A stretch of 64,000 bases of DNA from an uncultured Chloroflexia bacterium (GCA_963814125.1 CAWFBR010000001.1:218340-282339); one strand, 5' to 3'. Shown: positions 30,846 through 64,000, counted from the stretch's first letter. Notes: a model not told the origin generated them from the letters alone. Program-made: numbers and translations.

Positions 30846-30848
30846 GCG

Positions 30849-31417: not shown

Positions 31418-32935
<1,518 letters not shown>

Positions 32936-35398: not shown

Positions 35399-35446
35399 TC
35401 CTTCTCCGTTGGGCCGCGGGACTTGCCGCCGTTGCGGCGCCTGCTG

Positions 35447-36543: not shown

Positions 36544-36566
36544 GATATGCGCTCCGTCGGTCCGGT

Positions 36567-36782
36567 CTACTTGATGAAGAGGGCGAGCAGGCCGACGACG
36601 ATGGCGAGGACGCCGAGGCCTTCGGCGAGGGCGGCAAGGAGGATGGCCAGACCTCGGATCTGCCCTGCGGCGTCCGGGTTCCGCCCGATGGCGTTGCTGG
36701 ACATGCCCGCCAGGATGCCGATGCCGATGCCGGGGCCGATGACGCCCAGGGCCGCAAGGCCCGCTCCGATGTGTTCGACCAT
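36567..36782 (-). CDS. atpE: ATP synthase Fo subunit c
   Basis: MVEHIGAGLAALGVIGPGIGIGILAGMSSNAIGRNPDAAGQIRGLAILLAALAEGLGVLAIVVGLLALF is a c-ring hairpin with the conserved carboxylate. The track ORF is extended upstream spuriously. Confidence 0.85.
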   Translation of the reverse strand: MVEHIGAGLAALGVIGPGIGIGILAGMSSNAIGRNPDAAGQIRGLAILLAALAEGLGVLAIVVGLLALFIK

Positions 36783-36823
36783 TTGGGTGATCCTCCTTCG
36801 AAGGTATGTGTCGGCCGGTGGTG

Positions 36824-37888
36824 TCAGGCCCGAGTGGCGGTAGTTCTTGAGGCGCCGGCTGGCGCCCTGGATGAAGGGGCCGGGTCGATCGTCGGGCGGT
36901 GAGCCTCCTGGGGCTCGTGGCTCTCGACGGCCATAAGTATGAAGACGAGCGTCAGGATCGAGAAGATGAGCGCCTGAATGAGGTTCAGAAGTAGTTCCAG
37001 GCCCATGAGGGCGACAGGGAACACCGCCAGAGTAAGCGCGGTTATGACAGCGAGGGCAACCTCTCCGCCGTAGATGTTGCCGAAGAGTCGCATGGCCAGG
37101 ACTACGGGCTTGACGAACTCGAGGAACAGCTCGATGAAGCCGACGTACATGGCCAGGAGACCGGTCCCCAGGCCATGGCGGAATTCCCCAATCGGAAAGA
37201 ACTTGCTCAAGTAGGCCCGCGCTCCGCACCGCCGGAAACCTTCACCCTCGAAGATGGCGAAGGAGACGACGGCCAGCCCGATGGTCACGTTTACGTCGCT
37301 GGTGGGAGCGCGAAGCTGCGGGATCGAGCCGATGGGCGGTATCAAGCCGCTCCAGTTGCAGGCCAGGATCAGCACGAAGAAAGCGGCGAAGATCGGATAG
37401 TAGCGGCGCGTTCCATCCCCGCCGAAGCCGCCGGTGAAGTCCATTCCAAACTCGTAGGCCCATTCGATCGCGTTCTGGACGCCTCCGGGCACCAGCTTCA
37501 TACGCCTCGTCGCGAGGAAGGCCAACAACATGAGAAGGATCATCACGATCCACATGGTCAGGATGGTCGAGCTTATGCTGGGGTGGAAGTAAAACATCGG
37601 CGCGGATGCGGGAGCGCCAGACGGCTGCAGGTCCACGACGACCTCGGGTGGCGGCAGCTCGATGACGCTGCGGACGAAGCAATCGGGGAAACTGCACGCC
37701 TGGCCGGGCTCACCGCCCTTTGGGAAAGGCGGCACCACCATGGCCGCGAGGACATCGAGCGCGACGACGGCCGCGACCAGGACCAGGAAGGCCTTGCCTC
37801 CGAAGCGCCTCGCGTGCGGAGTTGCGGGGGCGGCCGGCTGGCTTTCTTGTTGCCTGTTCGCGGACGCACCGCGGGGATCGATTGTCAC
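36824..37888 (-). CDS. atpB: ATP synthase Fo subunit a (with a long N-terminal extension if the start at 37888 is real)
   Basis: C-terminal TM4–TM5 region …LAMRLFGNIYGGEVALAV… with the conserved Arg. The N-terminal ~100 aa are atypical. Confidence 0.8.
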   Translation of the reverse strand: MTIDPRGASANRQQESQPAAPATPHARRFGGKAFLVLVAAVVALDVLAAMVVPPFPKGGEPGQACSFPDCFVRSVIELPPPEVVVDLQPSGAPASAPMFYFHPSISSTILTMWIVMILLMLLAFLATRRMKLVPGGVQNAIEWAYEFGMDFTGGFGGDGTRRYYPIFAAFFVLILACNWSGLIPPIGSIPQLRAPTSDVNVTIGLAVVSFAIFEGEGFRRCGARAYLSKFFPIGEFRHGLGTGLLAMYVGFIELFLEFVKPVVLAMRLFGNIYGGEVALAVITALTLAVFPVALMGLELLLNLIQALIFSILTLVFILMAVESHEPQEAHRPTIDPAPSSRAPAGASRTTATRA

Positions 37889-37927
37889 ACTCGCTCCGCT
37901 AGGAAGCGGCCCTCGAGAGGCGCCGCG

Positions 37928-38164
37928 TCATCGTCTGTCACCCGCGTCCAGGCGGGCCAGGAACCGGGCGATCAGTCGCCAGCAACCGATGGCTCCGCTG
38001 ACGGTTCCGATCGCGAATCCAACAAGAACGAAGATCGGGACGGTTCCCAGGCGCTGGTCGAGCCAGTAGCCGCCGAGAACGCCCGCCAGAACGGTGATAA
38101 GCAGAACGAACGCGATCTCGGAGAACAGGGCGACATAGGCGGATGTTTTACCGAAGTCGTTCAT
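37928..38164 (-). CDS. AtpI/AtpZ-like small membrane protein upstream of atpB
   Basis: MNDFGKTSAYVALFSEIAFVLLITVLAGVLGGYWLDQRLGTVPIFVLVGFAIG… is two-TM AtpZ-like. Call is based on position and topology. Confidence 0.5.
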   Translation of the reverse strand: MNDFGKTSAYVALFSEIAFVLLITVLAGVLGGYWLDQRLGTVPIFVLVGFAIGTVSGAIGCWRLIARFLARLDAGDRR

Positions 38165-38277
38165 CGGCTCCCTGGCAGGCCGCGGTGAGTGTAGCAGTGG
38201 CCCTACTCGAATGCTAAACCCGAGAGAACACCCCACCTGGAATCCGCGTAGCGCATCTTCGCCTGGAGGCCGCCCGG

Positions 38278-39459
38278 CTAGTCTTCGGGGGCCGCGAGAG
38301 GGGCTTCTGCGCCCGCGGCCGTGCTCTCGCCAGCCGGCGGCGGATCGTAGGAGTCGCGATCGAGATCCTCGCCGACCACGTTGCCACCGCCGCCCAGCTT
38401 TGTGATCAGGAATAGGACGAGACCGAAGAGCACGGCCAGTCCCATAAACGCGTACATCTGATTCCTGCCGGAGAGCCCCAGGGAGAGCAGGGCCAGCAGG
38501 CCGCAGACCCCGTATATGACGAGCACGGTGTTCCGATGAGACAGGCCCAGGTCGAGCAGCCGGTGATGGATGTGGCCGCGATCCGGGGCGAAAGGCGATC
38601 TGCCGGCGGCGAGACGCCGCACGATGATCCAGAAAGTGTCGATGATCGGCACACCCAACACGAGGGCCACCACGGCGATCTTCGCGGTTCCCAGGATCGA
38701 GAGAACGGCCAGGCAGTAGCCGACGAGCATGATGCCGCTGGTCCCGGCGAAGATCGACGCGGGGTGGAAATTCCAGCGCAGGAAGCCGGCCAGGGCGCCG
38801 GCGAGGATGAAGCAGAACATGGCAACGTACGGCTCAACGGGGTTGCCGGTCAGGCTGATGACGCCGAGGGTCAGGGCGGCAATCAGAGCGATTCCGGACG
38901 ACAGCCCGTCCAGGCCGTCGATGAAGTTGATGCTGTTGATCATGCCCACGATCCACAGCAGTGTCGCCACCGCGGCAACGGCGCCGGAGATTTCGAGGGT
39001 GCCGCTGGGATCGAGGGGATCGTTGACATGGGCGACGACCACTCCCAGAGCGACGGCGACGCTTGCCAGCAGGAACTGGCCCAGGAATTGCCAGCGGGCG
39101 CGGAGCTGGAGCCAGTCGTCCAGGAAGCCGAGGCCCGTGGCCAGAACCGCGCCACCGAGCAGCGCCAGGCTCTGAGGCCTCTTGACGATCTGCGGCGCCT
39201 CGACGAAGTGCATGCCGATGATGCTGTTGGCAAAGAGAAGAAGGCTCGACACGAAGACGAACCCCAGCAAGATGGCGATGCCACCGCCTCGAGCGATAGC
39301 CTGCTTGTTCACTCGCCGCGCTTCGGGCCGATCGACCATTCCGAAGCGACGGGCAAAATGCCCGACGATCGGCGTCGCCACCAGGGTGATCGCGGCGGCC
39401 AGGAAGAATCCGAATACGAGAGCCGGGAGTGCCTCGACCGCTTTCTCGTTCAGGCTCAT
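38278..39459 (-). CDS. Polyprenol-phosphate N-acetylhexosamine-1-phosphate transferase (WecA/MraY family, GT4)
   Basis: MraY/WecA family TM architecture and DD/DG motifs (…NSINFIDGLDGLSSG…). Its position upstream of the atp operon matches the mycobacterial rfe. Confidence 0.8.
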   Translation of the reverse strand: MSLNEKAVEALPALVFGFFLAAAITLVATPIVGHFARRFGMVDRPEARRVNKQAIARGGGIAILLGFVFVSSLLLFANSIIGMHFVEAPQIVKRPQSLALLGGAVLATGLGFLDDWLQLRARWQFLGQFLLASVAVALGVVVAHVNDPLDPSGTLEISGAVAAVATLLWIVGMINSINFIDGLDGLSSGIALIAALTLGVISLTGNPVEPYVAMFCFILAGALAGFLRWNFHPASIFAGTSGIMLVGYCLAVLSILGTAKIAVVALVLGVPIIDTFWIIVRRLAAGRSPFAPDRGHIHHRLLDLGLSHRNTVLVIYGVCGLLALLSLGLSGRNQMYAFMGLAVLFGLVLFLITKLGGGGNVVGEDLDRDSYDPPPAGESTAAGAEAPLAAPED

Positions 39460-39623
39460 CGGGCAGCCTGAGCAGCCGATCGAGCGTCGGTCCGGCGACC
39501 CATCTCAGGCCGGCAAGCAACCGCCCATTGCGACGTGACTGCCCGGATCCGCCTCGCCGTCCAAGGCACCGCGCACACGGGCCGGGCGACGCCGGGTGCT
39601 TGGGGCGAGTAGCTCGCCGTCGG

Positions 39624-40904
39624 TCAGTCCTCCTGGAGTCCCGGGACCGGGAAGCGCGTGCAGAGATCGCGCGCCAGCGCGGCAAGCTTGGCCTGCTCCG
39701 AAGGATCGTCGCGAGTGACGATGGCTTCGACGATCATGTCGCCGATGCTTCGCATCTCGGGCTCGCGGAAGCCGCGGCTGGTCGTTGCGGGCGTGCCTAC
39801 CCGAATCCCCGAGGCGATGTTGGGTGGGTTCTTGTCGAATGGGATGGCGTTCTTGTTGACGGTGATCCCGATCTCGTCAAGCAGGCGCTCCGCTTCGCGC
39901 CCGGTGACGCCGAGCGGCGTCACGTCGACGAGCATCAGGTGGTTGTCGGTGCCACCGGAGACGACCCGTGCGCCCTTCTCGGCCATCGTGGCCGCAAGGA
40001 GTTTCGCGTTGACGATCGTCTGGCGCTGATCCTCGCGATACTCGTCGGTTGCGGCAAGCCGCAAGGCGACCGCCTTGGCAGCGATAACGTGCATGAGCGG
40101 GCCGCCCTGGGTACCGGGGAAGACGCTCTTGTCGACGGCCTTGCCCAACTCTTCGCGGCAGAATATGAGCCCACCCCTCGGGCCCCGCAGCGTCTTGTGA
40201 GTGGTGGTGGTCACGATGTCGGCGTGGGGGAAGGGGCTCGGGTGGCAGCCGGCGGCCACGAGACCAGCGATGTGGGCCATGTCCACAAACAGGTAGGCGT
40301 CGACGCCGTGGGCGATGGCGGCCAGGCGCTCGAAGTCCAGGGTGCGCGGATAGGCGCTGGCGCCCGCGACGATCATCTTCGGCCGCACGTCCGCCGCTTG
40401 CCTCTCGAGCGCGTCGTAGTCGATCTGCTCGGTCACCGGATCGACGCCGTATGCGTGGACCTCGAACCATTTGCCGCTGAAGTTGACCGGCGACCCGTGG
40501 GTAAGGTGGCCACCGTGAGCCAGGCTCATGCCCAATATCTTGTCGCCCATCTCGAGGACGGACAGGTATGCGGCCATATTGGCCTGGGCGCCCGCGTGTG
40601 GCTGGACGTTCACATGCTCCGCGCCCGGGAAGAGGGCGAGGGCGCGGTCCTGGGCGAGGCGCTCTGCGACGTCAACGAACTCGCAGCCGCCGTAGTAGCG
40701 CTTTCCGGGGAGGCCTTCGGCGTACTTGTTGGTGAGAGGCGAACCCTGCGCCTCCATCACCGCGGCAAAGGTGTAGTTCTCGCTGGCGATCAGCTCGATC
40801 TTCCAGCGCTGGCGATCGGTCTCGCCGCGAATGGCCGCCCACAACTCGGGGTCGACATCGGCCAGCCGGGCCCAGGCGATTCCATCTCGACGCGCGATCG
40901 TCAT
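39624..40904 (-). CDS. glyA: Serine hydroxymethyltransferase
   Basis: Full-length SHMT including the PLP-lysine region [14 protein letters not shown]. Confidence 0.95.
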
Positions 40905-41020
40905 GCCGCCTCCTTGCCCGGCCGGCGCAGCCGGCGCCTAACCATCCTTTTCGACGTGCGCGGGACCGGGTCGAGCCTATTGTCGCCGAACAGGGCGACC
41001 GGCGTGGTATGGCGGGATCG

Positions 41021-41689
41021 CTACACCCCGTGCGGCAGGCTCGCGGCGTCCAAGACCGCCGCCAGCTCCTCCCGCGGGATCGCACCGGCCCGGAGGATTC
41101 TCGGTAGTTCGCCCGAGCAGTCCACGACCGTGGACGGGATCCCGCCGCGGGCCGGACCGCCATCGATGACGAGGTCGATACGAGAGCCCAGCTGGGCAAG
41201 AACGCCCGAGGCATCGTGAGCATCGGCCTGGCCGGAGAGGTTGGCCGAAGTGACGGGCAACGGGCCCAGGGCACCGGCCAGGGCGCGGGGACAGTCGTGA
41301 TCCGGAAGGCGGACGCCGACCGTCGCGGCACCACCGGTCAAAGCCGCTGGTAGCCGCGCCCCGGGCGCCTGCGCCAGGACGAGGGTCAGCCCGCCCGGCC
41401 AGAAGCGCGATGCCAGGAGTCTGGCCGCGGGGGTGAGAAGGCCGACCGAACCGGCCTGATCGAGGCTGGCCACCAGCAGCACGATCGCCCGGTCGAACGG
41501 CCGCTCTTTGGCCGCGAAGAGCCGTTCCAGGCCGTCAGGAGCCTCCAGGGCAACCCCCACTCCGTAGACAGTGTCGGTCGGCATGGCAACGATGTCGCCC
41601 GCCCGCAGAACGTTCACGGCCTCCGCGCGCCCCCGCGCGTCGTCGGGGAGCAGCCGCGGCCGCCTCGGCAGTCCACCGGAACGCGTCAT
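41021..41689 (-). CDS. tsaC: L-threonylcarbamoyladenylate synthase (Sua5/YrdC/TsaC family)
   Basis: YrdC domain …AMPTDTVYGVGV… and …VTSANLSGQ…. Confidence 0.8.
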   Translation of the reverse strand: MTRSGGLPRRPRLLPDDARGRAEAVNVLRAGDIVAMPTDTVYGVGVALEAPDGLERLFAAKERPFDRAIVLLVASLDQAGSVGLLTPAARLLASRFWPGGLTLVLAQAPGARLPAALTGGAATVGVRLPDHDCPRALAGALGPLPVTSANLSGQADAHDASGVLAQLGSRIDLVIDGGPARGGIPSTVVDCSGELPRILRAGAIPREELAAVLDAASLPHGV

Positions 41690-42621
41690 CGCCGCTCGAC
41701 CCTGACACCGCCGTCGGCAAGGGCGGCGCGCAGTTCACGGTCGGAGGCACCCGCCGGGCCGCCCGTGCCGCGCACCGAATGAGGCCGTGCGCCCTCGAAC
41801 GCGATCCGTTCGATCATCTGCGCAGCCCCCTCTTCGGTCACCGGCGGAGCCACGAACCGCGCCACGGCCTGGACGGCCGGCGGAGCGCTGGGCATTGCCA
41901 CTCCGTGGCCGACCTCCGCGATCATCTCCAGGTCGTTGTACTGATCGCCCGCGGCCATGCACTGAGCGAGAGGCACTCGGAGGCGCCTGGCCAGCCAGCG
42001 GATTGCCATCCCTTTCGAAACGCCGGGCGCCAGGAACTCAAGGAAGCGTGGATGACTCAGTGTCACTTCTGCCCGACCGGCAAAGTGAGTTCGACCTTCG
42101 TCCAGAATGTCCAGCGAGTGCTCGCCCTCGCCGATGGCAACTACCTTGGTCACCGGCCGAAGAGCTCGGGCGGCTATGTTTGGCACGGTTCGCAACCTGT
42201 CGCCCACGAAGAGGCGGTACTCCTCTATCCGCGACTCGTCGGCAGCCACGATCATCCACTCCAGGTAGTTGAAATGCGGGATCAGCGCGCGCTCCTGGCA
42301 CCAGCGCACGATCTCGACCGTCACGGCCGGGGTGAGCGGCCGGTGGAACAGGATCCGGCCCAGGCGCCTCGAGCCTGGAGCGGGCATCCCCCGGATCAGC
42401 GCGCCCTGCTGGGCGACGAGCGGCCCTCTGAGACCGAGCGCCTCGGCGAACGGCATCGCGCTGGTGGCCATACGGCCGGTTACGAGCGAGACGGCGATCC
42501 CTCGCCGGGAGGCTTCGCCGATGGCCGCGAGGGTTCGTTCGCCGATGACCAGATCGTCGCCGACGAGGGTGCCGTCGATGTCGAGGGCGATCAGGCGAAT
42601 CGGGTGAATCGGCTCGATCAT
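41686..42621 (-). CDS. Cof-type HAD-IIB phosphatase
   Basis: LIALDIDGTL (motif I) and …AAGDQYNDLEM (motif IV). The ATG overlaps the prmC stop (ATGA). The upstream 194 codons of the track ORF are spurious. Confidence 0.75.
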   Translation of the reverse strand: MIEPIHPIRLIALDIDGTLVGDDLVIGERTLAAIGEASRRGIAVSLVTGRMATSAMPFAEALGLRGPLVAQQGALIRGMPAPGSRRLGRILFHRPLTPAVTVEIVRWCQERALIPHFNYLEWMIVAADESRIEEYRLFVGDRLRTVPNIAARALRPVTKVVAIGEGEHSLDILDEGRTHFAGRAEVTLSHPRFLEFLAPGVSKGMAIRWLARRLRVPLAQCMAAGDQYNDLEMIAEVGHGVAMPSAPPAVQAVARFVAPPVTEEGAAQMIERIAFEGARPHSVRGTGGPAGASDRELRAALADGGVRVERR

Positions 42622-43634
42622 CGGTGAGCCTGCGGGCCGATCGCGCGCTCCACGTGAGCGAGGCGAGGGTTGCCCGACAGGTCCGGCTGGATCCGACACG
42701 ACCACTCGCCTTCGAGTGCGGCCACCGCTTGCTGTACTGCGGGCCCCTGATTGAAGCCGATCTCGAGGAGCGCGGCACCGTCTGGAGCCAGGGCGGACGG
42801 CAGCGCTTCGAGCAGCCTCCGCACGACTGCCAGGCCATCGGGCCCGCCATCGAGTGCCAGACGCGGCTCGTAGGAGGCCGCCACCGGCAGGACGTCGACT
42901 TCCGCGGAGGGGATGTACGGCAGATTCGCCAGGATCAGGTCGAAGGAAGCTTCGGCAGGCGGCAGCAGGTCGGCCTCGAGGAAGACGATTGCGTCGGCCA
43001 CGGAATGCGCGACCGCGTTCTCCCTGGCCAGGCCCAGGGCATCGGCCGAGCAGTCGACGGCCAGGAGGGAGACTTCGGGGAGCATCCGGCGCCGCCTCAG
43101 CAGAGTCGCCAGCGCGATGGCGATCGCGCCGCAGCCGGTCCCGACGTCGACGACGCGCAGCCGCGGAGTGCCCGCCGGCCGTGGCGCCGATGTGAGTCGC
43201 CACGCGATCTCCCGCTCCGCCTCAGAGACGAGCAGCTCGGTCTCGGGCCGAGGGATGAGCGTCCGCCGATCCGCACCAAAGACCAGGCCGTAGAACTCCT
43301 TGAGGCCGCGAATGTAGGCCACGGGCTCGCCGCCCTCGCGCCGGACAACCCCGGCCTCGTACGTGGCCGCGGCGTCCGCACCAACCGGAGCCTCGGGATG
43401 GGCAATGACCGAGGTCCTCTCCGCGCCGATGGCCCAGCCGAGCAACAACTCGGCATCGAGACGGGCGCTCTCCGACCCGGAGGCACGGAGCCGTCTGGTT
43501 CCACTCGCCAGGAGATCGCCGATCGTCGCCACGCCGGTTCCCGCGACTACGACCGCGCCCAGGACAGTCCCGGATCCGTCACGCGTCGGAGTCCTCTCCC
43601 AGGAGGCGCAGCTGCTCGGCCTGGTACATCTCAC
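42618..43634 (-). CDS. prmC: Release-factor glutamine N5-methyltransferase (PrmC/HemK)
   Basis: …[16 protein letters not shown]… SAM motif and NLPY (NPPY variant) motif. The true start probably lies downstream of 43634, since it overlaps prfA. Confidence 0.85.
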
Positions 43635-44661
43635 TCAGGGCGTCGATCAGCTTCTCGATGTCGCCGTCCATCACGTTGGGCAAGTTGTGAAGGTCCAGCC
43701 CGATTCGATGGTCGGTCAGCCTGTCCTGGGGGAAGTTGTAGGTGCGGATCTTCTCGGATCGCTCACCCGAGCCGACCATGCTCCTCCGCAGTGTCGACTC
43801 GGCCTCCGCAATCCTGGCCCGCTCGCGATCCAGGAGCCGGCTGCGAAGGACGGCCATCGCCTTGGCTTTGTTCTTGATCTGGCTCTTTTCGTCCTGGATG
43901 GCAACGACGATGCCGCTGGGCTTGTGAGTGATGCGCACGGCCGAGTCGGTCGTGTTGACCGACTGCCCCCCGGGGCCGGTAGAGCGGTAGACGTCGACCC
44001 GGATGTCGTTCTCGTCTATGTGGACGTCGACCTCCTCGGCTTCGGGCAGCACGACGACGGTCGCGGTGGAGGTGTGGATCCGGCCGCTCGACTCGGTGAC
44101 CGGGATGCGCTGGACCCGGTGAACGCCCGCCTCGAACTTCAGCCGGCTGAAGGCGCGTCCGCCCGCGATCTCCACGATCGCCTCGTTGATCCCCCCGACC
44201 CCACTCCCTCCGAGGGTCAGAACCTCGGCGCGCATGTGGTGGCGCTCGGCGTAGCGGAGGTACATCCGCAGCAGCTCGGCCGCGAAGAGCTTGGCCTCGT
44301 CTCCTCCGGCTCCGGCTCGAATCTCCAGGATCACGTTCTTCTCGTCGGCGGGGTCGCGTGGGATCAGCTGGAGGCGAAGCAGTTCGATGAGTTCCTTCTC
44401 GCGGGCTTCGAGCCGGCGAACCTCATCCTGGGCCAGGTCGTGCATCTCCTCGTCGCCGCCGTCGCGCATCTCGAGCGCCTCGGCCAGTTCCTTGCGAGCC
44501 GCGAGCAGCTCACGCCAGGCGGAGACGGCCGGCTCGAGCTGGGCCAGCTCCTTGCCCAGACGCTTCAGCGCGGCCGGGTCGGCTGCCGTTTCTGGCCGGG
44601 TTAGCTCGTCCTGGATGGCATCGTAGCGGGAAGCGAGCTCTATGAGCTTGGCGTCGATCAC
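43579..44661 (-). CDS. prfA: Peptide chain release factor 1
   Basis: GGQ motif ([11 protein letters not shown]) and PxT-type region, 360 aa. Confidence 0.95.
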
Positions 44662-45836
44662 GAGTCAAGCCTGACAGGCTCGATCTTGGCGGGCTCTCCA
44701 TCTCTCACCCCATCGCCCTCCGGGCTGCCTGGATCCGACTCCAAGGGCCGCGACGCCAATTCCGCGCTGCCTTCCGGGATCTCGCGGCCATCGGCCATCA
44801 TTGCCCGCTGGAGCGAGACGATCGCGACCTCGATCATGTCGTCGGACGGCTGGCGAGTAGTGATCTTCTGAACCCAGATGCCGGGAGACCACAGCAACCG
44901 CACCGCGGCATGGCGGCGGTGCCGAGCGCCCAACTGGAGGAGTTCGTAGCTGATGGCGGCGATGACGGGGACGAGGACGACGCGCGAGACGACCAGCCAC
45001 AGCAGCGGCAGCTTCCCGACGACGGCGAAGGCGAGTATCGAGACGATCAGCACGACCACCAGGAACTCGGTCCCGCAGCGTGGGTGGGCCGTCGGGTACT
45101 TGCGGGCCGCTTCGACGGTCAACGGGTCGCCGGCCTCCAGAGTGTGGATCGACATGTGTTCGGCGCCGTGGTATTGGAACGTGCGTCGAACGTCCGCGGC
45201 ACGGCCCACGAGCAGCAGGTAGCCGATGAAGATGATCACCCGAATGACGCCTTCGGAGAGCTGGAAGGCGAAGCCCTGGTCCACTCGGCCTACGGTGGCC
45301 TGAGCCAGAAACAGCGGCAGCAGGAAGAAGAGGCCGATGCCGAGGGCCAGGGTAAGCAGCAGCATGCCGCCGACCGCCACCGTATAGCCCTTGCCGAGAC
45401 CGCGACCGGACTCCATGGCCTCAGCGGACGAGTCCTCGGGGGCATCCGGGCCGGCGGGACCCGAGTCGTGGCCCTCGACCGCACCCACGACCGCGGCGAC
45501 GGGGGCCAGCAGCAACATGTGCAAAACGGAACCGGTCCCGGCGGCCGCCCGGCCGCTCTTGCCCGCGCCCTCGTCCGAATCCTCGAGGGCCAGGGCCTGG
45601 AGCGTGGCCGACCGGACCAACCAGCGCGTGCCGGTTACGAGAGTGTCGTACAGGACGACCAGGCCGCGCAGGAACGGGAGCTTCAGGGCGCGGCGGGCGC
45701 GAAGGCCCAGATCCAATCGTTCGGTTGCCCAGACGATGGAACCGTCAGGGTGGCGGAGGGCGACCGCAAGCGCGTGCCGGCCGCGCATCAGGACGCCCTC
45801 GATCAGAGCCTGACCGCCGTATTGGTAGTTAGCCAT
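44658..45836 (-). CDS. DUF1385-domain protein
   Basis: [28 protein letters not shown]… is the DUF1385 N-terminal signature, followed by TM helices. Confidence 0.65.
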
Positions 45837-45994
45837 GGAGAGAGTCTAGCCCCTGAGTCGTGCGGCGCCGGGTCGCTTCATGAAGGACCGACCTCCGGAT
45901 GCCACGCGCGATCCGGGTTGCGCCACGCAAGGGAGACCCGTCGGAGGATCGGCTGGCCGCCGGAGCGATCCGGCGGAGCCGGGCGATGCGCAGC

Positions 45995-46207
45995 CTAGGC
46001 CCGCTCGGCGCGCTCGAGACGCCGCTGGAACCGCTCGACCTGCCCGGCCGTGTCGATGATCGTTTGCTTGCCCGTGAAGAACGGGTGGCAGTTGCTGCAG
46101 ACGTCGACCCGCAACTCCGACCTGGTCGATCCGATCTCGAAGACCGTCTTGCACGAGGCGCAGTGGACCGTCGCCTGCTGATAGGTCGGGTGGATCTTCG
46201 GCTTCAT
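45995..46207 (-). CDS. rpmE: 50S ribosomal protein L31
   Basis: MKPKIHPTYQQATVHCASCKTVFEIGSTR…CSNCHPFFTGKQ. Confidence 0.9.
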   Translation of the reverse strand: MKPKIHPTYQQATVHCASCKTVFEIGSTRSELRVDVCSNCHPFFTGKQTIIDTAGQVERFQRRLERAERA

Positions 46208-46304
46208 TCGTTGCTCCCAGGCGCCTTCCGTACGGTTTCCCGCCGGTGGTCGTCGGTGGTGCGATCGGCGTCCCGGCGCCGTACCGCGAGGTTGATCCTG
46301 CTGG

Positions 46305-46568
46305 CTACTCGCCAGCCAGGGCTTCGACTCGAATTCGCTTCTTCTGGCGGGTCTCGTGCTCGATGTGGACGGTCCCGTCCACCGTCGCGAAGACGGTGTA
46401 GTCGTGGCCCAGGCCCGCGCCTTTGCCGGCCTTGAAGGTCATTCCGCGCTGGCGGACGATGATCGAGCCGGAAGTGACGAACTGGCCGTCGCCGGCCTTC
46501 ATGCCGAGCCGCTGACCGACGCTATCGCGGCCGTTCTTGGAACTCGAGCCTGCCTTCTTATGGGCCAT
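46305..46568 (-). CDS. rpmA: 50S ribosomal protein L27
   Basis: [24 protein letters not shown]…. Confidence 0.92.
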
Positions 46569-46570
46569 CG

Positions 46571-47227
46571 CTACTCGTCCTTCTTTGCCCGGGAGGGTCG
46601 CTTGGGAGCGGCCGGTTCGTCGGTCTTGGCCGCCTTGGGCGCGGCCTTCGCAGGAGCTGCGGCCTTGGGCGCGGCCTTCGCCTTGGAGGGTTCATCGTCC
46701 TTAGCAGGCGCGGCCTTGGCCGCCTTTCCCTTGGGCGCGGCCTTGGCCGCCTTTCCCTTGGGCTTGGCCTCGTCCGCGACGGCCGTGCGAGCCTTGAGCT
46801 TCTCGGCCAGCGCCGCGTCCTCGGCCGCCTGTCGGGCGGCTGCCTTGGAGACCCTTGCGCGCTCCGCCTCGGCTTCAGCCTCGGCCTCCTGAGCCTCCGC
46901 GGCTGCGCTCTTCGAGCCGAGCCGAACGTCGGTGATCTTGAGCACCGTCAGCTCCTGGCGATGCCCCTTTTTGACGCGACTGCGGGCCTTAGGACGGTAT
47001 TTGAAGGAGATGGTCTTCTCGCCCCGAGCCTGACGCAGGACCCGAGCGCTCACGGCCGCATCCGCCACCAGAGGCTGGCCTACTGACGACTTGTCGCCGT
47101 CGACGACCAGCAGGACTCGGTCGAGGTTGATCTCCTGACCCGGCTCGACGTCGAGCAACTCCACCTCGAGCTCCGTTCCGAGTTCGACGCGGTACTGCTT
47201 TCCGCCGGTCTGGATGACTGCGTACAT
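46571..47227 (-). CDS. rplU: 50S ribosomal protein L21 with a ~115-aa Ala/Lys/Pro/Glu-rich C-terminal extension
   Basis: [17 protein letters not shown]… is the L21 core (~103 aa), followed by …[38 protein letters not shown]…[18 protein letters not shown]…. Confidence 0.85.
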
Positions 47228-47309
47228 TGGCCCTCGGGAGGTTGACGGGCGCGGGGCCCACGGGTGCATGACACGAAAGCGCCCCCGGTTTCCCCGGGGC
47301 GCGAAGTGC

Positions 47310-52064: not shown

Positions 52065-53219
52065 TCACCACTCGGGCTTCTCGCGGCGCAGATTCGTGCT
52101 CTGGAGCATGCCGAGGCCGGCGGCCAGGCTGACGAGGGAGGCGCCGCCGTAACTGATGAAGGGCAGTGGGATGCCAGTGACGGGGACAAGCCCTATAACC
52201 ATGCCAACGTTCACAAACACCTGGAAGAAGATCATCGTCGCGAGGCCGCAGCCGAGGAGCATGGCGAAGCGATCTGGCGCGCGCCATGCGCAAATCGTCA
52301 GTCGCAGCAGAAGGAGTGCAAAGAGGGCGAGGACGACCATCGAGCCGATGAAGCCAAGCTCCTCGGCAAGAACCCCCCACACGAAGTCCGTTGCCTGAAC
52401 TGGCACCACGACCGTGCCGTTGGTGAGCCCCTTCCCTCCGAGTCCGCCCGCATTGACCGCGGTCTCGGCCTGGTGCACCTGGTATCCGGCGCTGTTCGGG
52501 TCCGCGCCCGGATTGAGCAACGTGAGCAAGCGGGCTTTCTGGTAGTCGCGCAGACCGTTCCATACGATGGGGATGGCTCCCGCAACTCCCGCAACCAGGG
52601 TTCCCATCCAGAACAGGCTCGCCCCGGACATGAAGAGCATGCCGGCCACCAGGGCGACAAGGACGAGGGACGTGCCCAGGTCCGGTTGGAGCATGACCAG
52701 GATCCAGGGCGGAACCATGATCGCGATCGCCCCGACTATGGTCCAGGGCGATTTCGCACTCTCCTCCCGATGGGCCAGGTACGCCGCGAAAACGATGACC
52801 ATGACGATCTTGGCGAGTTCGCTGAACTGGAACTGGAAGCCACCGATGGTGACCCAGCGGGCCGCATTTACGGCCTCGCCGGTGCCGCGACCGATCCGCA
52901 GCGTCAGGATCAGCAGTCCGATGTTGATCAGATACAGCGGCCAGGCAAAGGAACGCAGCCACCTATAGTCGAAGACCGTCGTCAGCCCAAGGACAACGGC
53001 CGCGATTACGGCCCACATCAGACTCCGCACAAACGGCGATTCCAGGGACACTGACTCGTTGGTCGATCCCACCGTGTTGCTGTACGCCATCACCAGTCCG
53101 AAGATGGTGAGGAGCACCGCGTAGGTCGTGAGCTGGAAGTCGTAGTTGCGCCACGCCAGCCAGCCGGCTTTGGGGGCCCAGCCCCGGAGTCTGAGGGTTT
53201 CGCCGCGCAGAATGCTCAT
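52065..53219 (-). CDS. rodA: SEDS-family peptidoglycan glycosyltransferase RodA (FtsW/RodA/SpoVE)
   Basis: SEDS family TM pattern. Call supported by its position beside PBP2. Confidence 0.85.
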   Translation of the reverse strand: MSILRGETLRLRGWAPKAGWLAWRNYDFQLTTYAVLLTIFGLVMAYSNTVGSTNESVSLESPFVRSLMWAVIAAVVLGLTTVFDYRWLRSFAWPLYLINIGLLILTLRIGRGTGEAVNAARWVTIGGFQFQFSELAKIVMVIVFAAYLAHREESAKSPWTIVGAIAIMVPPWILVMLQPDLGTSLVLVALVAGMLFMSGASLFWMGTLVAGVAGAIPIVWNGLRDYQKARLLTLLNPGADPNSAGYQVHQAETAVNAGGLGGKGLTNGTVVVPVQATDFVWGVLAEELGFIGSMVVLALFALLLLRLTICAWRAPDRFAMLLGCGLATMIFFQVFVNVGMVIGLVPVTGIPLPFISYGGASLVSLAAGLGMLQSTNLRREKPEW

Positions 53220-53235
53220 AGGTCAGTCGATACCG

Positions 53236-55254
53236 TCAGTCCCTGTTGGGACTGCCATAGAAGTTGGTGACACGCTGGGTCCAGGTCTGGATGTAGCCGG
53301 GCGTGCGGATACTGAATGGGTCGCCCTTCAAGCCGAAATGCATCATGAGGTAGTACTTGACGACCTCGGTCGCCACGTTGCCCCAGGTGTCGGCGCCGTA
53401 TATGAACGCCACCACAGCGAGCTGCGAGTCCGGCTTCGTGAAGTCCCCGTTGTACGGATCCCCGGGCACGTAGCCGACGAACCACTCGTGGTACGGCAGT
53501 CGGCCGTATTTGTCGATGACGCCGAACTCCGCCGTCCCGGTCTTGCCGGCGACCTTGATCGGCAGATCCACGAGGTTATACGTGTGTCGGGTCGTAACCA
53601 CGGCGCGCGTCGCAAGACGCATGGTCTCGAGGGTCTGCTGCGAGGCAGGCAACTTGTTCAGGAGTTTCGGCTGGATCGGCGTGATGTTGCCCGCGGAGTC
53701 GATGGTCGACTGCACCACGTGTGGCTGCCAGAGGTTGCCTCCGTTGGCCAGGGCACAGTACGCGTTCAGGAGCTGGAGCGGCGTCGAGGCGTCATAGCCC
53801 TGACCGATCCCGGCCTGGAGGATTTCGCCGGTGAACATCGGCTGGCTCGTGTTCTTCAACTTCCAGTCGTTGGTAGGCACGATGCCGCTGGCCTCGAAGG
53901 GGAGGTCGATGCCGGTCGGGGCCCCGAAACCGTACTGCGTGGCCCAGAAGGTCAGGCGGTCGAGACCGACCATCTGCGCGAGCTGGTAGAAGAATGTGTC
54001 GCTTGAATAGGCAACGCCCTGGGTCACGTTCAGGGGTCCCCAGCCCTGCTTGTCCCACTCCCAGAACTTGAAGTCGCCGATCTGGATGTAGGGCTGGGAG
54101 AGGAGAGTCGTCGAGGCGTTGAACGCGCCGCTTGTGCTGTTGAAGCTGCCGTTGCAGTAGTCGAACTCCGATCGAGTGGCGTCTCCCGCGAACTGGCACT
54201 GAGGATTGTCCTGAAGGCCGGCCGTCCCGGTAACCAGCTTGAAGGTGGACCCCGGAGCGTACTGGGCTGCGATGGCCTTGTTGAGAAGCGGCTGGGACGG
54301 ATCGGCGTTTAGTTTCTGGAAGTCCGTCTCGCTGATCCCATCGGCGAACTTCTGGTCGTCATAGCTCGGCAGGCTGACCATTGCCAGGATGTTCCCGTTC
54401 TGGGGGTTCTCGACGATGATCACGCCTCTCGTCGCAATGGGCACGCCGTTGCCGTTGAGGCCCCACTGGAGCGCCTTCTGTGCGATCTCCTGCTCGTGGG
54501 CGTCGATGGTCAGGGTCAGGGACTCACCCGGAATCGGGGGCTTGTGGCTGGTCACGAGCCCGGGGATGGCCTTCCCAGAGCTGTCAAGCGCCACGCTCTC
54601 ATCACCATAGGTGCCGCGGAGCAGCTGCTCGTACGACGCCTCCAACCCGTTCTGGCCAACCACGTCCGAGTTCGAGTAGCCCTGGTCTTTCAGGGTGTCG
54701 TATTGAGCCTGCGTAATCTGGCCGGTGTAGCCGAGGATCTCGGAAAAGAGGGGACCGGTAACGTACTGGCGGTGCTGTATGACCGCTACCTTCACGCCCG
54801 GCAGCGAATCGCTGTTCTCCTCGATGAAGCGCGCCACCTCGACGGGGACGTTGTCGGCGATCTTCACCGGCTCGTACAGCGACCCGGTCGCACTGTCAAT
54901 CCTCGTCTCGATATCGACCGGGCTCGCGTTCAAGAGCGACCCCAAGCGTTCGGAAACCAACGGCTTCTCGGAGAGCGACAGGTCGCTCGGTGTCACGGTG
55001 ACCGAGTAGCTGACAACGTTCTTGACCAACGGCGCTCCCGACGCGTCGTAGATGAGTCCCCGGGTCGACGGAACGCTCTGCTTCGCCGTCCCCGGAGCGT
55101 TGGCCGCCTGATCCGCGGGTTGCCCCTGCACGACCTGGAGATAGAACATCCTGCCGCTCAGCGAAGTCACACCCACGACGACTGCCAGGACGAACGCACC
55201 GAATCGGTAGATGTTCCTGAGCTCGGCCTGTCGGCCTTCTGTCTTGGTGCTCAC
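53236..55254 (-). CDS. mrdA: Penicillin-binding protein 2 (class B transpeptidase)
   Basis: PBP dimerisation and transpeptidase domains with STFK, SxN and KTG(T) motifs. Confidence 0.9.
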   Translation of the reverse strand: MSTKTEGRQAELRNIYRFGAFVLAVVVGVTSLSGRMFYLQVVQGQPADQAANAPGTAKQSVPSTRGLIYDASGAPLVKNVVSYSVTVTPSDLSLSEKPLVSERLGSLLNASPVDIETRIDSATGSLYEPVKIADNVPVEVARFIEENSDSLPGVKVAVIQHRQYVTGPLFSEILGYTGQITQAQYDTLKDQGYSNSDVVGQNGLEASYEQLLRGTYGDESVALDSSGKAIPGLVTSHKPPIPGESLTLTIDAHEQEIAQKALQWGLNGNGVPIATRGVIIVENPQNGNILAMVSLPSYDDQKFADGISETDFQKLNADPSQPLLNKAIAAQYAPGSTFKLVTGTAGLQDNPQCQFAGDATRSEFDYCNGSFNSTSGAFNASTTLLSQPYIQIGDFKFWEWDKQGWGPLNVTQGVAYSSDTFFYQLAQMVGLDRLTFWATQYGFGAPTGIDLPFEASGIVPTNDWKLKNTSQPMFTGEILQAGIGQGYDASTPLQLLNAYCALANGGNLWQPHVVQSTIDSAGNITPIQPKLLNKLPASQQTLETMRLATRAVVTTRHTYNLVDLPIKVAGKTGTAEFGVIDKYGRLPYHEWFVGYVPGDPYNGDFTKPDSQLAVVAFIYGADTWGNVATEVVKYYLMMHFGLKGDPFSIRTPGYIQTWTQRVTNFYGSPNRD

Positions 55255-55258
55255 AGCG

Positions 55259-55762
55259 TCACCGCCACCACACCACGCGTTCCCGTTGCTCGGCGCGCCG
55301 CTTGAGACCGATCACCAGTGGCGCGACCAGCGCGGAGACGGCAGCATTGACAATCCCGGCGGCCAGGAAGTTGGCCGGTTGAATCGGTGGCGCAGGGGGC
55401 CGAAGCAACCCCGTAACAACGCCGGATATCAGTAGAAAAGCTGGGGTAAGCACGAGCACGGCGCCGATGACCCCCGGGTACCGCGATCGCGAAAGGAGAG
55501 GCACCGCCAGATCGGTCGCGGCCATCACTATCAAGAGCCCGAAGACCGTGGATCCAATCGGTCGCAATGCCAGGAAGTCCAGGAAGAGGCCGCCCACGAA
55601 TGCCCATGTCATGCCCTCTTCGAAGCCGTAGACGAGGGTAATGGCGACGCCGACGACCAGAACGATCTGGAGTTGTGCGCCAGCGATCTGATATCGCGAC
55701 GCGATCGTGGACTCCAGGAGCGCCGCGATTCCGGCACCGACCGCAGCGAACGCGGGAGCCAT
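55259..55762 (-). CDS. mreD: MreD-like rod-shape membrane protein
   Basis: 167 aa with 5 TM helices, immediately upstream of mrdA. Call rests on topology and position. Confidence 0.55.
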   Translation of the reverse strand: MAPAFAAVGAGIAALLESTIASRYQIAGAQLQIVLVVGVAITLVYGFEEGMTWAFVGGLFLDFLALRPIGSTVFGLLIVMAATDLAVPLLSRSRYPGVIGAVLVLTPAFLLISGVVTGLLRPPAPPIQPANFLAAGIVNAAVSALVAPLVIGLKRRAEQRERVVWWR

Positions 55763-56014
55763 GGCGGTCAGCCCTCATGGTGTTGGGGGAGCGACACTCC
55801 GGGGAGCGGAGCGCGACCGAGTATCGTCATCAACCGGGGGAGTATAGGGCCGCCGGCACGATCGGGACAACGCCGCGGCCTGGGCTGCAACCGGCACGAG
55901 GCCGCTTACGAGGGAGTAGCCAAGCGGCATCGCCGAGGCAGAGCGGGGTCCTCGGGGCAGACCCGCGAGACCCAGGATTGGAAATCGTCTAGGTGACCCG
56001 TTCACTCCGCCACA

Positions 56015-56030
56015 TGTTTCACGTGAAACG
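56015..56030. promoter_or_regulatory. parS centromere site (TGTTTCACGTGAAACG, 15/16 match to consensus)
   Basis: Direct match to the ParB-binding palindrome tGTTTCACGTGAAACa. Confidence 0.75.
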
Positions 56031-56065
56031 ATTGAGAGGCAGCGCGCGTCAGTCCGACTTTCCGT

Positions 56066-56081
56066 TGTTGCACGTGAAACA
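56066..56081. promoter_or_regulatory. Second parS site (TGTTGCACGTGAAACA, 15/16)
   Basis: Direct match, about 50 bp from the first site and about 400 bp upstream of parA. Confidence 0.7.
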
Positions 56082-56481
56082 CACGCCATCACGGTCCCTC
56101 GCGGCCTTCGCCAGCCTGTGACACCCAGGCGCTCCGGCTCCTCGATCGACCTGGTCCGCCCGCGAGTCTCGCTTTGGCCCGCAGCAGCGCGGCCCAAATC
56201 CGAGCAAGGGTCGAACCGCCCTCGGCCGTCCCCGGTCCACCCACATCGTCCGGTCGACACAGCAATGGCAGTCCGGTGGCTTCCCGCCGGCGGCAGATTG
56301 TCCCGGTGACGCGCACGTAATTGAGGGAGAAGCACGTAGGAGTACTTTCGAGATGCCGCGCACCAGTTCGGCAGTCTGAGGAATCGATGCTCGCGCGGCC
56401 CGCCGGAGCCTCACTCGAAATCCGAAGGGAGGCTCCGAATGCTAGAATTTGAGCGTGCTGCCGACCGAAATGGGGACCTGA

Positions 56482-57323
56482 GTGGGCCAGATCATCGCCT
56501 GCGCCAACCAGAAGGGTGGCGTCGGTAAGACGACCACGGTTGTCAACCTGGCGACATACCTGGCGCTTGCCGGAGATGCGGTTCTCGTCATCGACCTCGA
56601 CCCTCAGGGCAATACCACCAGCGGCTTCGGCTTGGATCGTGGCCGGATCGAGCACTCGGTCTACGAGGCCATCATCGAGGACACCCTCGTGTCCGAACTG
56701 GTGGTCGGGACCGCAATCCCGGGCCTTTCGATCGTGCCATCCTCGATCTCCCTGGCCGGCGCCGAAGTCGAGCTTGCGCCGTTGCCCCAGCGTGAACGGC
56801 GTCTCGCCCGCATCCTGACCGAGCTCGTCGCCTCATACGACTACATCATCCTCGACTGCCCGCCGTCGCTCGGACTGCTGACCGTCAACGCGCTGACCGC
56901 GGCCGACGCCGTCGTGATCCCGATCCAGTGCGAGTACTACGCCCTGGAGGGCCTGTCGCAGTTGATCGCCACCATCAATCTGGTTCGCAACCATCTCAAC
57001 CCCGACCTCGCCATCAAGGGCGTTGTGCTGACGATGTACGACGCCCGGACCAACCTCTCGGCAGAGGTCGATGCGGAGGTCCGGAAACACCTCGGTGCCG
57101 CCGTCTTCGAGACCGTCATACCGCGCAGCGTCCGTCTTTCGGAGGCGCCCAGTTACGGGCAGCCGATAGCCCTCTATCGCCCCGAATCAAGGGGGGCGGA
57201 AGCATATGCCTCGCTGGCAGCCGAGTTGCGAAAGCGCGATGGCCGTCCGGCGCCCGGGCCAGCGACGATGCCGGCCACCGGAACCGGTGCAGCCGACGCC
57301 GGAGCCGTTCGTGGGGGAACACT

Positions 57324-57327
<4 letters not shown>
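56482..57327 (+). CDS. parA: Chromosome partitioning ATPase ParA/Soj
   Basis: IIACANQKGGVGKTTT deviant Walker A, 281 aa, GTG start. Confidence 0.92.
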
Positions 57328-60688
<3,361 letters not shown>

Positions 60689-60692
<4 letters not shown>

Positions 60693-61687
60693 GCCCTCCG
60701 TCCGCCAGGGCCCCTTCAGCCGTCACCGCGGCGTCGAATCTCTTCGTGGCCGAGCATCTCGCCGCCGCAGTCGCTCTCGGCGAGCGGTTGGTCGATCTCG
60801 TCTACGACCCGGACGCCTTCGTCGCGACCATAACCGAGGGATTCGAGGCCATCGCAGATCCCGTGGCGGCCGACGGCGCTCACTTCGTGACCCCTGGCCT
60901 CGGACCCGTGTTCGGGGTTCGGCTGCCGTTGATGGACGCCGCCCAGAAGGCCTTCAGGCGCGGCACGAGCAAGACGCCGTCGTCTCTGCTCCTCGACACG
61001 ATGGGGCGACTGCTGCGCGAAGAGAAGCGCGAGATTCGCTGGTTCGGAATGTGGAACCTCGCCCGCCTCCTGCCCACGGACCCGGAGAGAACGTGGCAGC
61101 TTCTCCGCGGCGCGGCCCGCGAGGCGGACGAATGGATCACCGTGGACACTCTCGCCCACCCCTACGGCGAAGGGATCCTTCGGGACGCTCGCCGCTGGCC
61201 TGAGCTGGAGCAGCTCGTGTACTCGACGTCGCGCTGGGAGCGGCGTCTGGTCGGATCCACCCTGGCGACGATGCCCCACGTCAGAGGTGTGGCAGGCGGC
61301 CGCGACCGCCCGGTAATCGAGCACGGCCTCGCGCTCGTCGGTCAGCTCATCGGCGACGACGAGCCGGACGTCCAGAAGGCCCTGTCGTGGGCGCTTCGCG
61401 CGCTAGCCCAGCTGGACGCAACGGCGACAACCCGCTTCCTGGAAGCGGAGGCGCGGACCGCGCGACTGACCGACGACGGTCATCGCGCCTGGGTAATCCG
61501 CGACTCCGTATCGAAGCTACCGGCCGAAACCGGCGCTCGCCTCCGGGCTGATCTCGGCGGGATCCGGCGCCGTGCCCGCGCTCCGTCCACATCTCGCGCC
61601 GCGGCCACCGCGGCTGAATTCGCCACCGTCGGCACCACGAGCCCCACGCCACGTGCCGCCAACTCCGGGAGGAATACCGCACCGTGA
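60689..61687 (+). CDS. HEAT-repeat DNA alkylation repair (AlkD-like) protein candidate
   Basis: Helical repeat protein with W/R/D-rich motifs (…[11 protein letters not shown]…[13 protein letters not shown]…RWERRLV…) resembling the AlkC/AlkD family. The ATG overlaps the thioesterase stop. Confidence 0.45.
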
Positions 61688-64000
61688 CCGAGGATCTGGG
61701 CCAGGTTCGAGTCGTCCGCGTCGAGGACGAGATGCGGACCAGCTACCTGGACTACGCGATGAGCGTCATCGTCGCGCGTGCCCTGCCCGACGTTCGCGAC
61801 GGCCTCAAGCCGGTCCACCGGCGAATTCTTTACACGATGGGCGAGATGGGGCTGTCGTCCAGCTCGTCGTTCCGCAAGTGCGCCGCGATCGTCGGCGAGG
61901 TCATGGGCAAGTACCACCCCCACGGGGACGCCGCGCTCTACGACGCGCTGGTCCGCCTCGCCCAGGACTTCTCGATGCGCTACCCCCTCGTCGACGGTCA
62001 GGGCAACTTCGGCTCGATCGACGGGGACAGCGCCGCCGCCATGCGGTACACCGAGGCACGCCTGACCGGCATCTCGGCCGAGATGCTGGCCGACATCGAC
62101 AAGAACACCGTCGACTTCGTGGACAACTACGACGGCACGCAGAGAGAGCCCACAGTCCTGCCCGCGAAGCTGCCGAACCTGCTCATCAACGGTTCATCGG
62201 GCATCGCGGTCGGCATGGCCACGAACATACCGCCCCACCACCTGGGCGAAGTGTGCGACGCGGCCCGAGCGCTCATCGACGATCCCCAGCTCACCTCGGA
62301 CGACCTCTGCAAGTACATCATCGGCCCCGACTTCCCGACCGGCGGCACGTTGTTCCGCTACGAGACTCGCCGAAACCCCATCACCGGCGAGAGCGAGACC
62401 ATCGACGCGATACGAGAGATGTACGCCCACGGGCGAGGTCGTGTCGTCATCCGCGCCCAGGTCGCCTTCGAGGAGACCCGGCAGGGGCGCATGTCGATCA
62501 TCGTCACGGAACTGCCCTACATGGTCAACAAAGCCGTCCTGCTGGAGAAGATGGCCGAGTTGGTCGGGGCTAAGAAGCTCGAGGGGATCGCCGACCTCCG
62601 AGACGAATCGGACCGAGACGGCATGCGCATCTATATCGAGATGAAGCGCGACGCGGATCCCCACCGCGTCTTGAACAACCTGTTCAAGCACACGGCGATG
62701 CAGGTCGCCTTCAACCTAAACATGCTCGCCCTCGTCGACGGCCAGCCGCAGACCCTCCCGCTCAAGGCAGTTCTGCAGCACTACATCGACCACAGGCGCG
62801 AGATCATCGTGCGCCGCACGGAGTACGACCTGGAAAAGGCGCGCGCGCGGGCCCATATCCTCGAGGGCCTCAAGATCGCCCTGGACAACCTCGATGCGGT
62901 GATCAAGACCATCCGCGAGTCGGCCGACGTCGAGACGGCCCGAGCGAACCTGATGACCCGCTTCGGACTGACGGAGATCCAGGCCCAGGCCATCCTGGAC
63001 ATGCGCCTGGCCCGCCTGGCCGCCCTCGAGCGGAAGAAGATCGAGGACGAGTACCTCGAGGTCATCAAGCTCATTGCGGAGCTGGAGGACATCCTGGCGA
63101 ATCCGTCACGCGTCATGGCGGTCATCAAGGACGAGCTCGCGGCGCTCAAGACGAAGTACGCCGGCGTGCGCCGGACTCGGATCGCGGACGACTCAAGTCG
63201 CGCGATGACGGACGAGGACCTCATCGCCGACGAGGACGTCGTGATCACCATCAGCGGCCGCGGCTACATCAAGCGCCAGCCGGTCGCCACGTACCGCCGC
63301 CAGGCCCGGGGGGGCAAGGGGATCATCGGCCACGTGACCCGCGAGGAGGACGCCGTCGAGCACCTCCTTGTCGCCAACACCCACGACTGGGCGCTCTTCT
63401 TCACGAACCGCGGCCGGGTCTTCTCGGCCAAGGTCCACACCATCGTGGACGCGAGCCGACAGGCCAAGGGCATCGCGATCATCAATCTCCCCGGCGTCCA
63501 GGTGGAGCCGGGCGAGGTCCCGATGGCGACAATAACCCTGTCGGACTTCAACGCCGGCAAGTTCCTGGTGATGGCCACGCGGAACGGCATCGTCAAGAAG
63601 TCGCCGCTGGAGCAGTTCGACCGTGTCCGTTCAAACGGCATCATTGCCATCACCATCGCGCCCGAGGACGAGCTCGCCTGGGTCGACGTGGCAACGGGCA
63701 AGGACGATGTGATTCTCGCCAGCGCTCAGGGCAAGATCGCCCGCTTCCACGAGGACGAGGTCAGACCGATGGGCCGCACCGCAGCCGGCGTGATCGGTAT
63801 GCGCCTGGCAAGTCCCACCGACCACGTCGTCGGTATGAGCGTTGTCCAGATCACCGCGGATCTGCTCGTCCTGACCGAAACCGGATACGGCAAGCGCGTT
63901 CCTCTGACGGAGTTCCGGGCAATGCACCGGGGCTCCCAGGGCGTCCGGCTGATCTCCCTCGAGGGCAAGAAGACCGGCGACGTGGCCGCCGTCCAGCAGG
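61684..64000 (+). CDS. gyrA: DNA gyrase subunit A (partial, 3' end beyond the window)
   Basis: …[27 protein letters not shown]… with the active-site Tyr region. A GTG start overlaps the upstream stop. No stop within the window. Confidence 0.95.

Follow-up and report, generated by a model that had tools for sequence, protein, structure and literature searches.

The window, by which we mean the whole 64,000-nucleotide stretch of DNA that was analysed, contains a long non-coding gap from which two operons diverge (Table 1). On its left the minus-strand operon 52065..55762 consists of mreD, which is the first gene, mrdA and rodA; on its right parA, parB and gyrB follow one another on the plus strand, with gyrA further downstream and cut by the window end. 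The gap itself carries two parS sites and a predicted promoter for each of the two operons. By ParA similarity the DNA was assigned to a lineage of uncultured Chloroflexota. Its nearest relative, L001, is a "Chloroflexia" MAG of the MFD series with a ParA that is 87% identical, and the ParA proteins of the farther relatives (L002-L009, of which L009 is labelled Candidatus Limnocylindria) are 65-76% identical. The comparisons of loci below draw on a set of 80 fetched loci, comprising these nine lineage loci and 71 loci from other phyla.

Table 1. Features of the gap and of its gene neighbourhood, in window coordinates.
Feature	Position	Strand	Evidence or description
CpaB/RcpC-like gene	17035-18057	+	Pilus cluster
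Response-regulator-ParA/MinD-like ATPase fusion	18014-19372	+	Pilus cluster
CpaF-type ATPase	19405-20799	+	Pilus cluster
Two TadB/C-type T2SSF proteins	20820-22769	+	Pilus cluster
rodA	52065-53219	-	Pfam FTSW_RODA_SPOVE
mrdA (PBP2)	53236-55254	-	Pfam Transpeptidase and PBP_dimer
mreD	55259-55762	-	Weak match: Pfam MreD, 25.9 bits; TIGR03426, 32.3, just below the cut-off of 34.85
Gap between the divergent mreD and parA operons	55763..56481	.	719 bp, non-coding, 65.5% GC
Putative sigma-70-like promoter of mreD-mrdA-rodA	55841..55870	-	-35 TTGTCC, 18-nt spacer, -10 TATACT
parS site 1, TGTTTCACGTGAAACG	56015..56030	.	15/16 positions as in the consensus TGTTNCACGTGAAACA (1 mismatch)
parS site 2, TGTTGCACGTGAAACA	56066..56081	.	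0 mismatches; 51 bp from site 1; direct-repeat family D2
Inverted repeat	56404..56437	.	12-nt arms, 92% complementary, 10-nt loop; abuts the parA -10 element on its upstream side
Putative extended -10 of the parA promoter, TGcTAGAAT	56440..56448	+	34 nt upstream of the parA GTG
Shine-Dalgarno of parA, GGGGA	56472-56476	+	Sequence
parA, Soj-type partition ATPase	56482..57327	+	281 aa; Pfam AAA_31 (4.7e-66), CbiA
parB	57324..58187	+	287 aa; Pfam ParB_N, HTH_ParB, ParB_C
gyrB	58184..60166	+	660 aa; TIGR01059 equivalog, 954.6 bits vs cut-off 882.4; TTG start
Thioesterase	60159..60692	+	Between gyrB and gyrA
AlkD-like DNA alkylation repair gene	60527..61687	+	Ahead of gyrA
gyrA, cut by the window end	61684..63999	+	Pfam DNA_topoisoIV (1.4e-162), DNA_gyraseA_C

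Both partition proteins carry the motifs of their families. ParA has the deviant Walker A motif KGGVGKTT at residues 11-18 (pattern KGGxxK[ST]). ParB displays an N-terminal GLGRGLGAL motif and the arginine patch GERRVRAA, which is of the CTP-binding GERRxRA type, together with a helix-turn-helix (HTH) domain and a C-terminal dimerisation domain. It scored 168.5 bits against TIGR00180 (cut-off 58.45) and stayed below the cut-off of the Noc model, and its best solved relative is Spo0J of Thermus thermophilus (PDB 1vz0, 6.7e-59).

The parA and parB reading frames overlap by 4 nt (GTGA at 57324-57327), as do parB and gyrB, where the parB stop and the gyrB start share the sequence TTGA at 58184-58187. 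The Shine-Dalgarno sequence GGAGGA (58172-58177) is found six bases ahead of the gyrB TTG, and no alternative start exists ahead of the conserved GyrB N-terminus. The two overlaps and this ribosome-binding sequence suggest that parA, parB and gyrB form one translationally coupled operon. As the first-pass annotation of this DNA had remarked, parB runs straight into gyrB with no dnaA between them, and dnaA is absent from the rest of the window. All nine lineage loci have the direct parB-gyrB junction, and it is missing from each of the 71 loci of other phyla; an operon that joins parAB directly to gyrB by 4-nt overlaps is thus specific to the lineage.

The wider gene order (rodA-mrdA-mreD, gap, parA-parB-gyrB, thioesterase, AlkD-like gene, gyrA) recurs in the relatives as far as their contigs reach. 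The rodA-mrdA-mreD block lies upstream of the gap in L001-L004 and L006-L008, and the gyrB-to-gyrA order of the window was seen in seven of the nine relatives; L007 ends inside gyrB, the thioesterase is missing from L008 and the AlkD-like gene from L009. In the window the thioesterase ORF shares 166 bp with the longest AlkD-like ORF. Alignments of the relatives to the AlkD-like protein begin no earlier than residue 32-73, except that of L001, which begins at residue 1; the true start of the AlkD-like gene is therefore probably downstream of 60527.

The first-pass annotation had described the gap as the point at which gene orientation flips, and this description was borne out by the gene calls. 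From 25926 to 55762 all called genes are on the minus strand, the one exception being an antisense shadow ORF within the minus-strand gene 41686-43203, and those from 56482 to the window end occupy the plus strand, again with a single shadow ORF, antisense to parB, as the exception. The minus-strand block contains mreB, murA, the atp operon, glyA, a Sua5-family gene, prfA and rplU-rpmA among others, as well as a radical-SAM/DUF2344 pair and a Na/H exchanger. Further left, approximately 16 kb of plus-strand genes at 10-26 kb, including a Tad pilus cluster and histidine kinases, interrupt the pattern.

Several other features of the left arm were recorded. The minus-strand genes at 28506-47269 (rplU-rpmA, DUF1385, prfA, HAD, Sua5-family, glyA, a family-4 glycosyltransferase, atpB...atpC, murA and mreB) resemble the Bacillus-type prfA-ywlC-glyA-atp-murAA-mbl supercluster. 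The mreB gene (28506-29507) adjoins murA and the atp operon, at a distance of 26 kb from mreD-mrdA-rodA, and no mreC gene was observed ahead of mreD. The pilus cluster, which is of the Tad/Flp type, lies within 16262-22769 on the plus strand. The 770-bp gap before it includes one of the most AT-rich 100-bp stretches of the window (52% GC at 16971) and a 74-aa ORF (16589-16813) that may encode a pilin. At 10398-13238, again on the plus strand, there is a region of long ORFs (up to 946 aa) with 69-71% GC and an AT skew of -0.27, and a 349-aa ORF at 10483-11532 had no Pfam match.

The gap had been called non-coding, and this assignment stands. Codon periodicity was absent, GC content by frame position ranging from 0.63 to 0.69 as compared with GC3 values of 0.72-0.90 in called genes. 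None of the ORFs within the gap matched an NCBIfam family, an Rfam search returned nothing even at E<=1, and a tRNA search was likewise negative. A hidden gene was considered in the form of a 186-aa and a 63-aa ORF and was rejected, both lacking a family match and codon periodicity. A second statement, that the gap is visibly less GC-rich than its flanks, did not survive: its GC content is 65.5% as against 66.6% for the 64-kb window, which places it at the 33rd percentile of 719-bp windows, one third of them being lower. Only short patches dip, to 0.50 over 60 bp around parS site 1 and to 0.45 over 40 bp at 56315.

The two parS sites were found at exactly the coordinates given in the first-pass annotation. 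They were the sole matches to the consensus with no more than two mismatches in 64 kb, where shuffled sequences gave an expectation of 0.02. Each of the eight lineage loci that cover the DNA upstream of parA has between one and three parS sites in the ~580 bp before the gene, and no site was detected elsewhere in the lineage loci (6.5-21 kb each). L005 begins 174 bp upstream of parA and shows no parS, and was left out of this count. A position of parS directly upstream of parA is also common in other phyla, as judged from the 80 fetched loci.

Orthologous gaps of about 340-920 bp are present in the relatives, and an alignment of eight of them had a mean column identity of 36%. The blocks surviving in this alignment were parS, an AGTAT(A/C)CC sequence near mreD and TG-N-TAGAAT ~35 nt upstream of parA. 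When exact words were surveyed, the 8-mers of the parS half-site were the only ones common to all eight gaps; in shuffled gaps 8-mer sharing usually peaked at four or five gaps and never reached eight in 50 trials. A de novo motif search of the eight gaps returned parS and the parA -10 element only.

These results bear on the possibility that the parS-like sequences are chance palindromes without function. Two sites were found 51 bp apart beside parAB where 0.02 were expected, and their position has been kept in eight relatives in spite of the low identity of the flanking non-coding DNA. Because of this conservation we regard a chance origin as effectively refuted.

The gap of the window is 250-300 bp longer than that of most relatives, the extra DNA being 56082-56430. 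In consequence 400 bp separate parS from the parA start, in comparison with 129-200 bp in L002-L008. The additional ~350 bp between parS site 2 and the parA promoter could be aligned only in part with L001, and displayed no detectable structure or conservation. A structured RNA was considered for the 359-nt spacer 56082-56440 and rejected, given the lack of an Rfam match at E<=1 and fold z-scores of +0.63 and +0.44. The inverted repeat at the right-hand end of the spacer was not clearly conserved in relatives, and no detectable structure could be assigned to it.

Two of the conserved blocks coincide with promoter-like elements. The putative promoter on the mreD side was the only promoter-like match of a scan of 55600-56600, in which 0.1 were expected, and the AGTAT(A/C)CC block corresponding to its -10 element was kept in all eight aligned gaps. 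On the parA side a TAGAAT-type hexamer occurs at the same distance from parA in nine of nine lineage sequences (as TAGACT in L006), with the upstream TG present in all but L008. The gap is therefore predicted to contain two divergent promoters, one serving mreD-mrdA-rodA and the other parA-parB-gyrB.

With parS located between divergent promoters (the mreD promoter being ~145-210 bp and the parA -10 element ~360-425 bp away), the sites might be mainly operators, through which ParB represses parAB-gyrB, mreD-mrdA-rodA or both, so that control and not segregation would be their primary function. Spreading from parS allows ParB-family proteins to silence neighbouring genes, and the KorB relatives retrieved are consistent with such an effect. 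However, the parS sites overlap neither promoter, and the parS-to-promoter distance varies from ~90 to 360 bp among the relatives, a variation that speaks against an operator of fixed geometry. Moreover, this ParB is of the full chromosomal kind and its partner is a ParA of the Soj type. A primary operator function is for these reasons unlikely; regulation of this kind would be compatible with a centromere role and would not replace it.

The centromere proposed in the first-pass annotation was thus upheld. parS is statistically real and conserved upstream of parA in eight of eight relatives whose loci cover this DNA, and the adjacent ParA and ParB carry canonical motifs; on these grounds a centromere is strongly supported, as well as sequence analysis allows. 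Work on ParABS systems indicates how it would function. ParB acts as a CTP clamp that self-loads at parS, slides to neighbouring DNA, stimulates ParA and recruits SMC, and both the GERRxRA patch and a ParA gradient belong to this mechanism (PMC7333895). At the locus described here, ParB dimers encoded ~1.3 kb downstream would nucleate on the two 16-bp palindromic parS sites, bind CTP via GERRVRAA, close to a sliding clamp and spread over the adjacent DNA. The Walker-type ATPase ParA would then move the ParB-DNA complex, which probably also loads SMC. Since two divergent promoters are predicted in the same gap, ParB spreading may in addition tune both. ParB binding and spreading at parS, as well as any autoregulation, are predictions of this model.

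The first-pass annotation had also put the gap forward as a candidate origin-proximal region. parS generally lies near oriC (PMC7333895), and by this rule an origin-proximal location can reasonably be inferred. A stronger proposal is that the gap is, or adjoins, the replication origin itself, dnaA having moved elsewhere and the genes being co-oriented with two replication forks. In addition to the parS rule, this idea can draw on the gene divergence: to the left, housekeeping genes (atp operon, glyA, prfA, rplU-rpmA, mreB) occupy the minus strand over ~30 kb, and to the right the genes are on the plus strand. The divergence is conserved in relatives, where it reaches at least 8.7 kb to the right in the five loci checked and 10 kb in four of them. 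By bacterial standards the gap is also a long intergenic stretch. Co-orientation on the left side is, however, broken by the plus-strand genes at 10-26 kb. A literature search on Chloroflexi oriC and parS yielded nothing specific.

DnaA boxes were sought as TTNTCCACA-like sequences with at most one mismatch, on the assumption that the DnaA of the lineage recognises such a box. The gap contained none, in agreement with the earlier failure to find convincing boxes there, and none were present in six of seven orthologous gaps. The whole window held 13 matches, none of them perfect and never two within 600 bp, so that the best cluster per 600 bp amounted to one box; the corresponding values for L001-L009 were 0-2, and up to 10 kb from parA no cluster was detected in any of the nine related loci. 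Applied to positive controls of similar GC content, the scan performed well: in 13 of 14 dnaA-bearing loci it detected 4-18 boxes per 600 bp next to the gene, among them five Acidimicrobiia or Actinomycetota loci at 61-65% GC. The best cluster of the remaining control, L010, had only two boxes. In L009 (Ca. Limnocylindria) one perfect box, TTATCCACA, was observed at ~71-79, between the parS pair and the parA promoter. It is the sole perfect box in any lineage locus and could be counted in favour of an origin, but it is a single box and not a cluster. The only repeated motif common to the gaps is parS.

An AT-rich stretch resembling an unwinding element was likewise missing from the gap, whose GC content is average. 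Its lowest 40-bp value was 0.45, as compared with 0.33-0.38 at control origins of 61-65% GC. No dnaA was recovered by tblastn with E. coli DnaA from the window, which covers 56 kb to the left of the gap and 7.5 kb to its right, or from any of the nine lineage loci. The query, which is validated only by its control hits, located dnaA in 38 of the 71 loci from other phyla at ~31-48% identity, near full length in most. There is also no dnaN near the gap. For an origin, proximity to dnaA or dnaN is usual but not obligatory.

The cumulative GC skew turns at ~56 kb, as a maximum and not as the canonical minimum. Third codon positions of the coding strands have more C than G (GC3 skews of -0.08 to -0.25 across the genes of the window, for example in 28506-40904 and 56482-63999), a bias that was strongest in the atp, gyr and par genes. 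In the coding sense GC3 skew was -0.12 for minus-strand genes on the left, -0.08 for plus-strand genes on the left and -0.20 for plus-strand genes on the right. The skew mirrors gene direction both at the 22-26 kb convergence and at the 56 kb divergence. This can be explained by the C-rich third positions, which cause the cumulative skew to peak where genes diverge and to dip where they converge, the reverse of a textbook origin; the flip at ~56 kb follows gene orientation. When the two orientations on the left arm were compared, the strand-specific residual was +0.012 +/- 0.014, indistinguishable from zero. Local skew is consequently uninformative about an origin, and the skew-minimum test proposed in the first-pass annotation would have to be corrected for the codon bias. 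A conserved skew switch inside the non-coding gap was also considered; it was weak in the window and was rejected when relatives did not reproduce it.

With no box cluster, no AT-rich stretch, no dnaA and a skew that tracks gene orientation, the candidate origin could not be sustained beyond its context, as the first-pass annotation had itself partly granted, and we consider it very unlikely that the gap is or adjoins the replication origin. Instead, it is very probably the centromere and shared control region of a canonical chromosomal ParABS system of an uncultured Chloroflexota, and not a replication origin. The locus is a real and conserved but ordinary chromosomal parS centromere with divergent predicted promoters. 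For an uncultured lineage of soil Chloroflexota it provides a clean and conserved parS annotation, of use in annotating genomes. In this lineage parAB appears to be joined to gyrB both in transcription and in translation, and it is not coupled to dnaA. Two cautions also follow: finding parS together with a flip of gene orientation is not sufficient to locate an origin, and in genomes with C-rich third positions on their coding strands local GC skew simply mirrors gene direction.

Comparison with known systems places the locus more precisely. High-GC origins flanking dnaA were represented by Acidimicrobiia, Actinomycetes and Rubrobacteraceae loci (L014, L015, L018, L047, L061, L064 and L074). 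Like these DnaA-box origins, the gap is a long non-coding interval where genes diverge, and it belongs to a main chromosome bearing gyrB and gyrA. In contrast to them, with their 4-18 TTNTCCACA-like boxes per 600 bp, 40-bp stretches of 15-38% GC and adjacent dnaA, it has no boxes, a 40-bp minimum of 45% GC and no adjacent dnaA.

An Elusimicrobia MAG locus, L078, has parAB, gyrB and gyrA on one strand in the same order as the window. There, dnaA and a cluster of four DnaA boxes just upstream of it are situated between parB and gyrB (12600-14005), which is the kind of arrangement envisaged in the first-pass annotation, whereas the overlap of parB and gyrB in the window allows no room for dnaA or for a remnant of an origin. 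The L078 arrangement may resemble the ancestor of the Chloroflexota parAB-gyrB fusion, and as regards its history the lineage looks like an L078-type block from which the dnaA-origin module is missing, with no intergenic remnant. One might extend this and suppose that a dnaA-oriC module was cleanly removed from an ancestral parAB-dnaA-gyrBA block while replication continues to initiate in the parS gap or beside it, from initiator sites unlike TTATCCACA. We think this highly improbable; if true, it would mean an origin that has merged with a centromere and has no recognisable DnaA boxes, AT-rich element or linkage to dnaA.

The closest parallels to the centromere are the ParABS systems of Thermus thermophilus (Spo0J, PDB 1vz0), Bacillus subtilis (Soj/Spo0J) and Caulobacter crescentus. 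As in these systems, the 16-bp parS consensus is TGTTNCACGTGAAACA, ParB combines a GERRxRA CTPase domain with an HTH domain and a C-terminal dimerisation domain, ParA is of the Soj type, and parS adjoins the parAB operon. Unlike in these systems, parAB and gyrB form one operon whose genes overlap by 4 nt, there is no linkage of parAB to dnaA, gidAB or rnpA, and the divergent upstream neighbour is mreD-mrdA-rodA. This synteny was shared by nine of nine lineage loci and by none of the 71 loci from other phyla.
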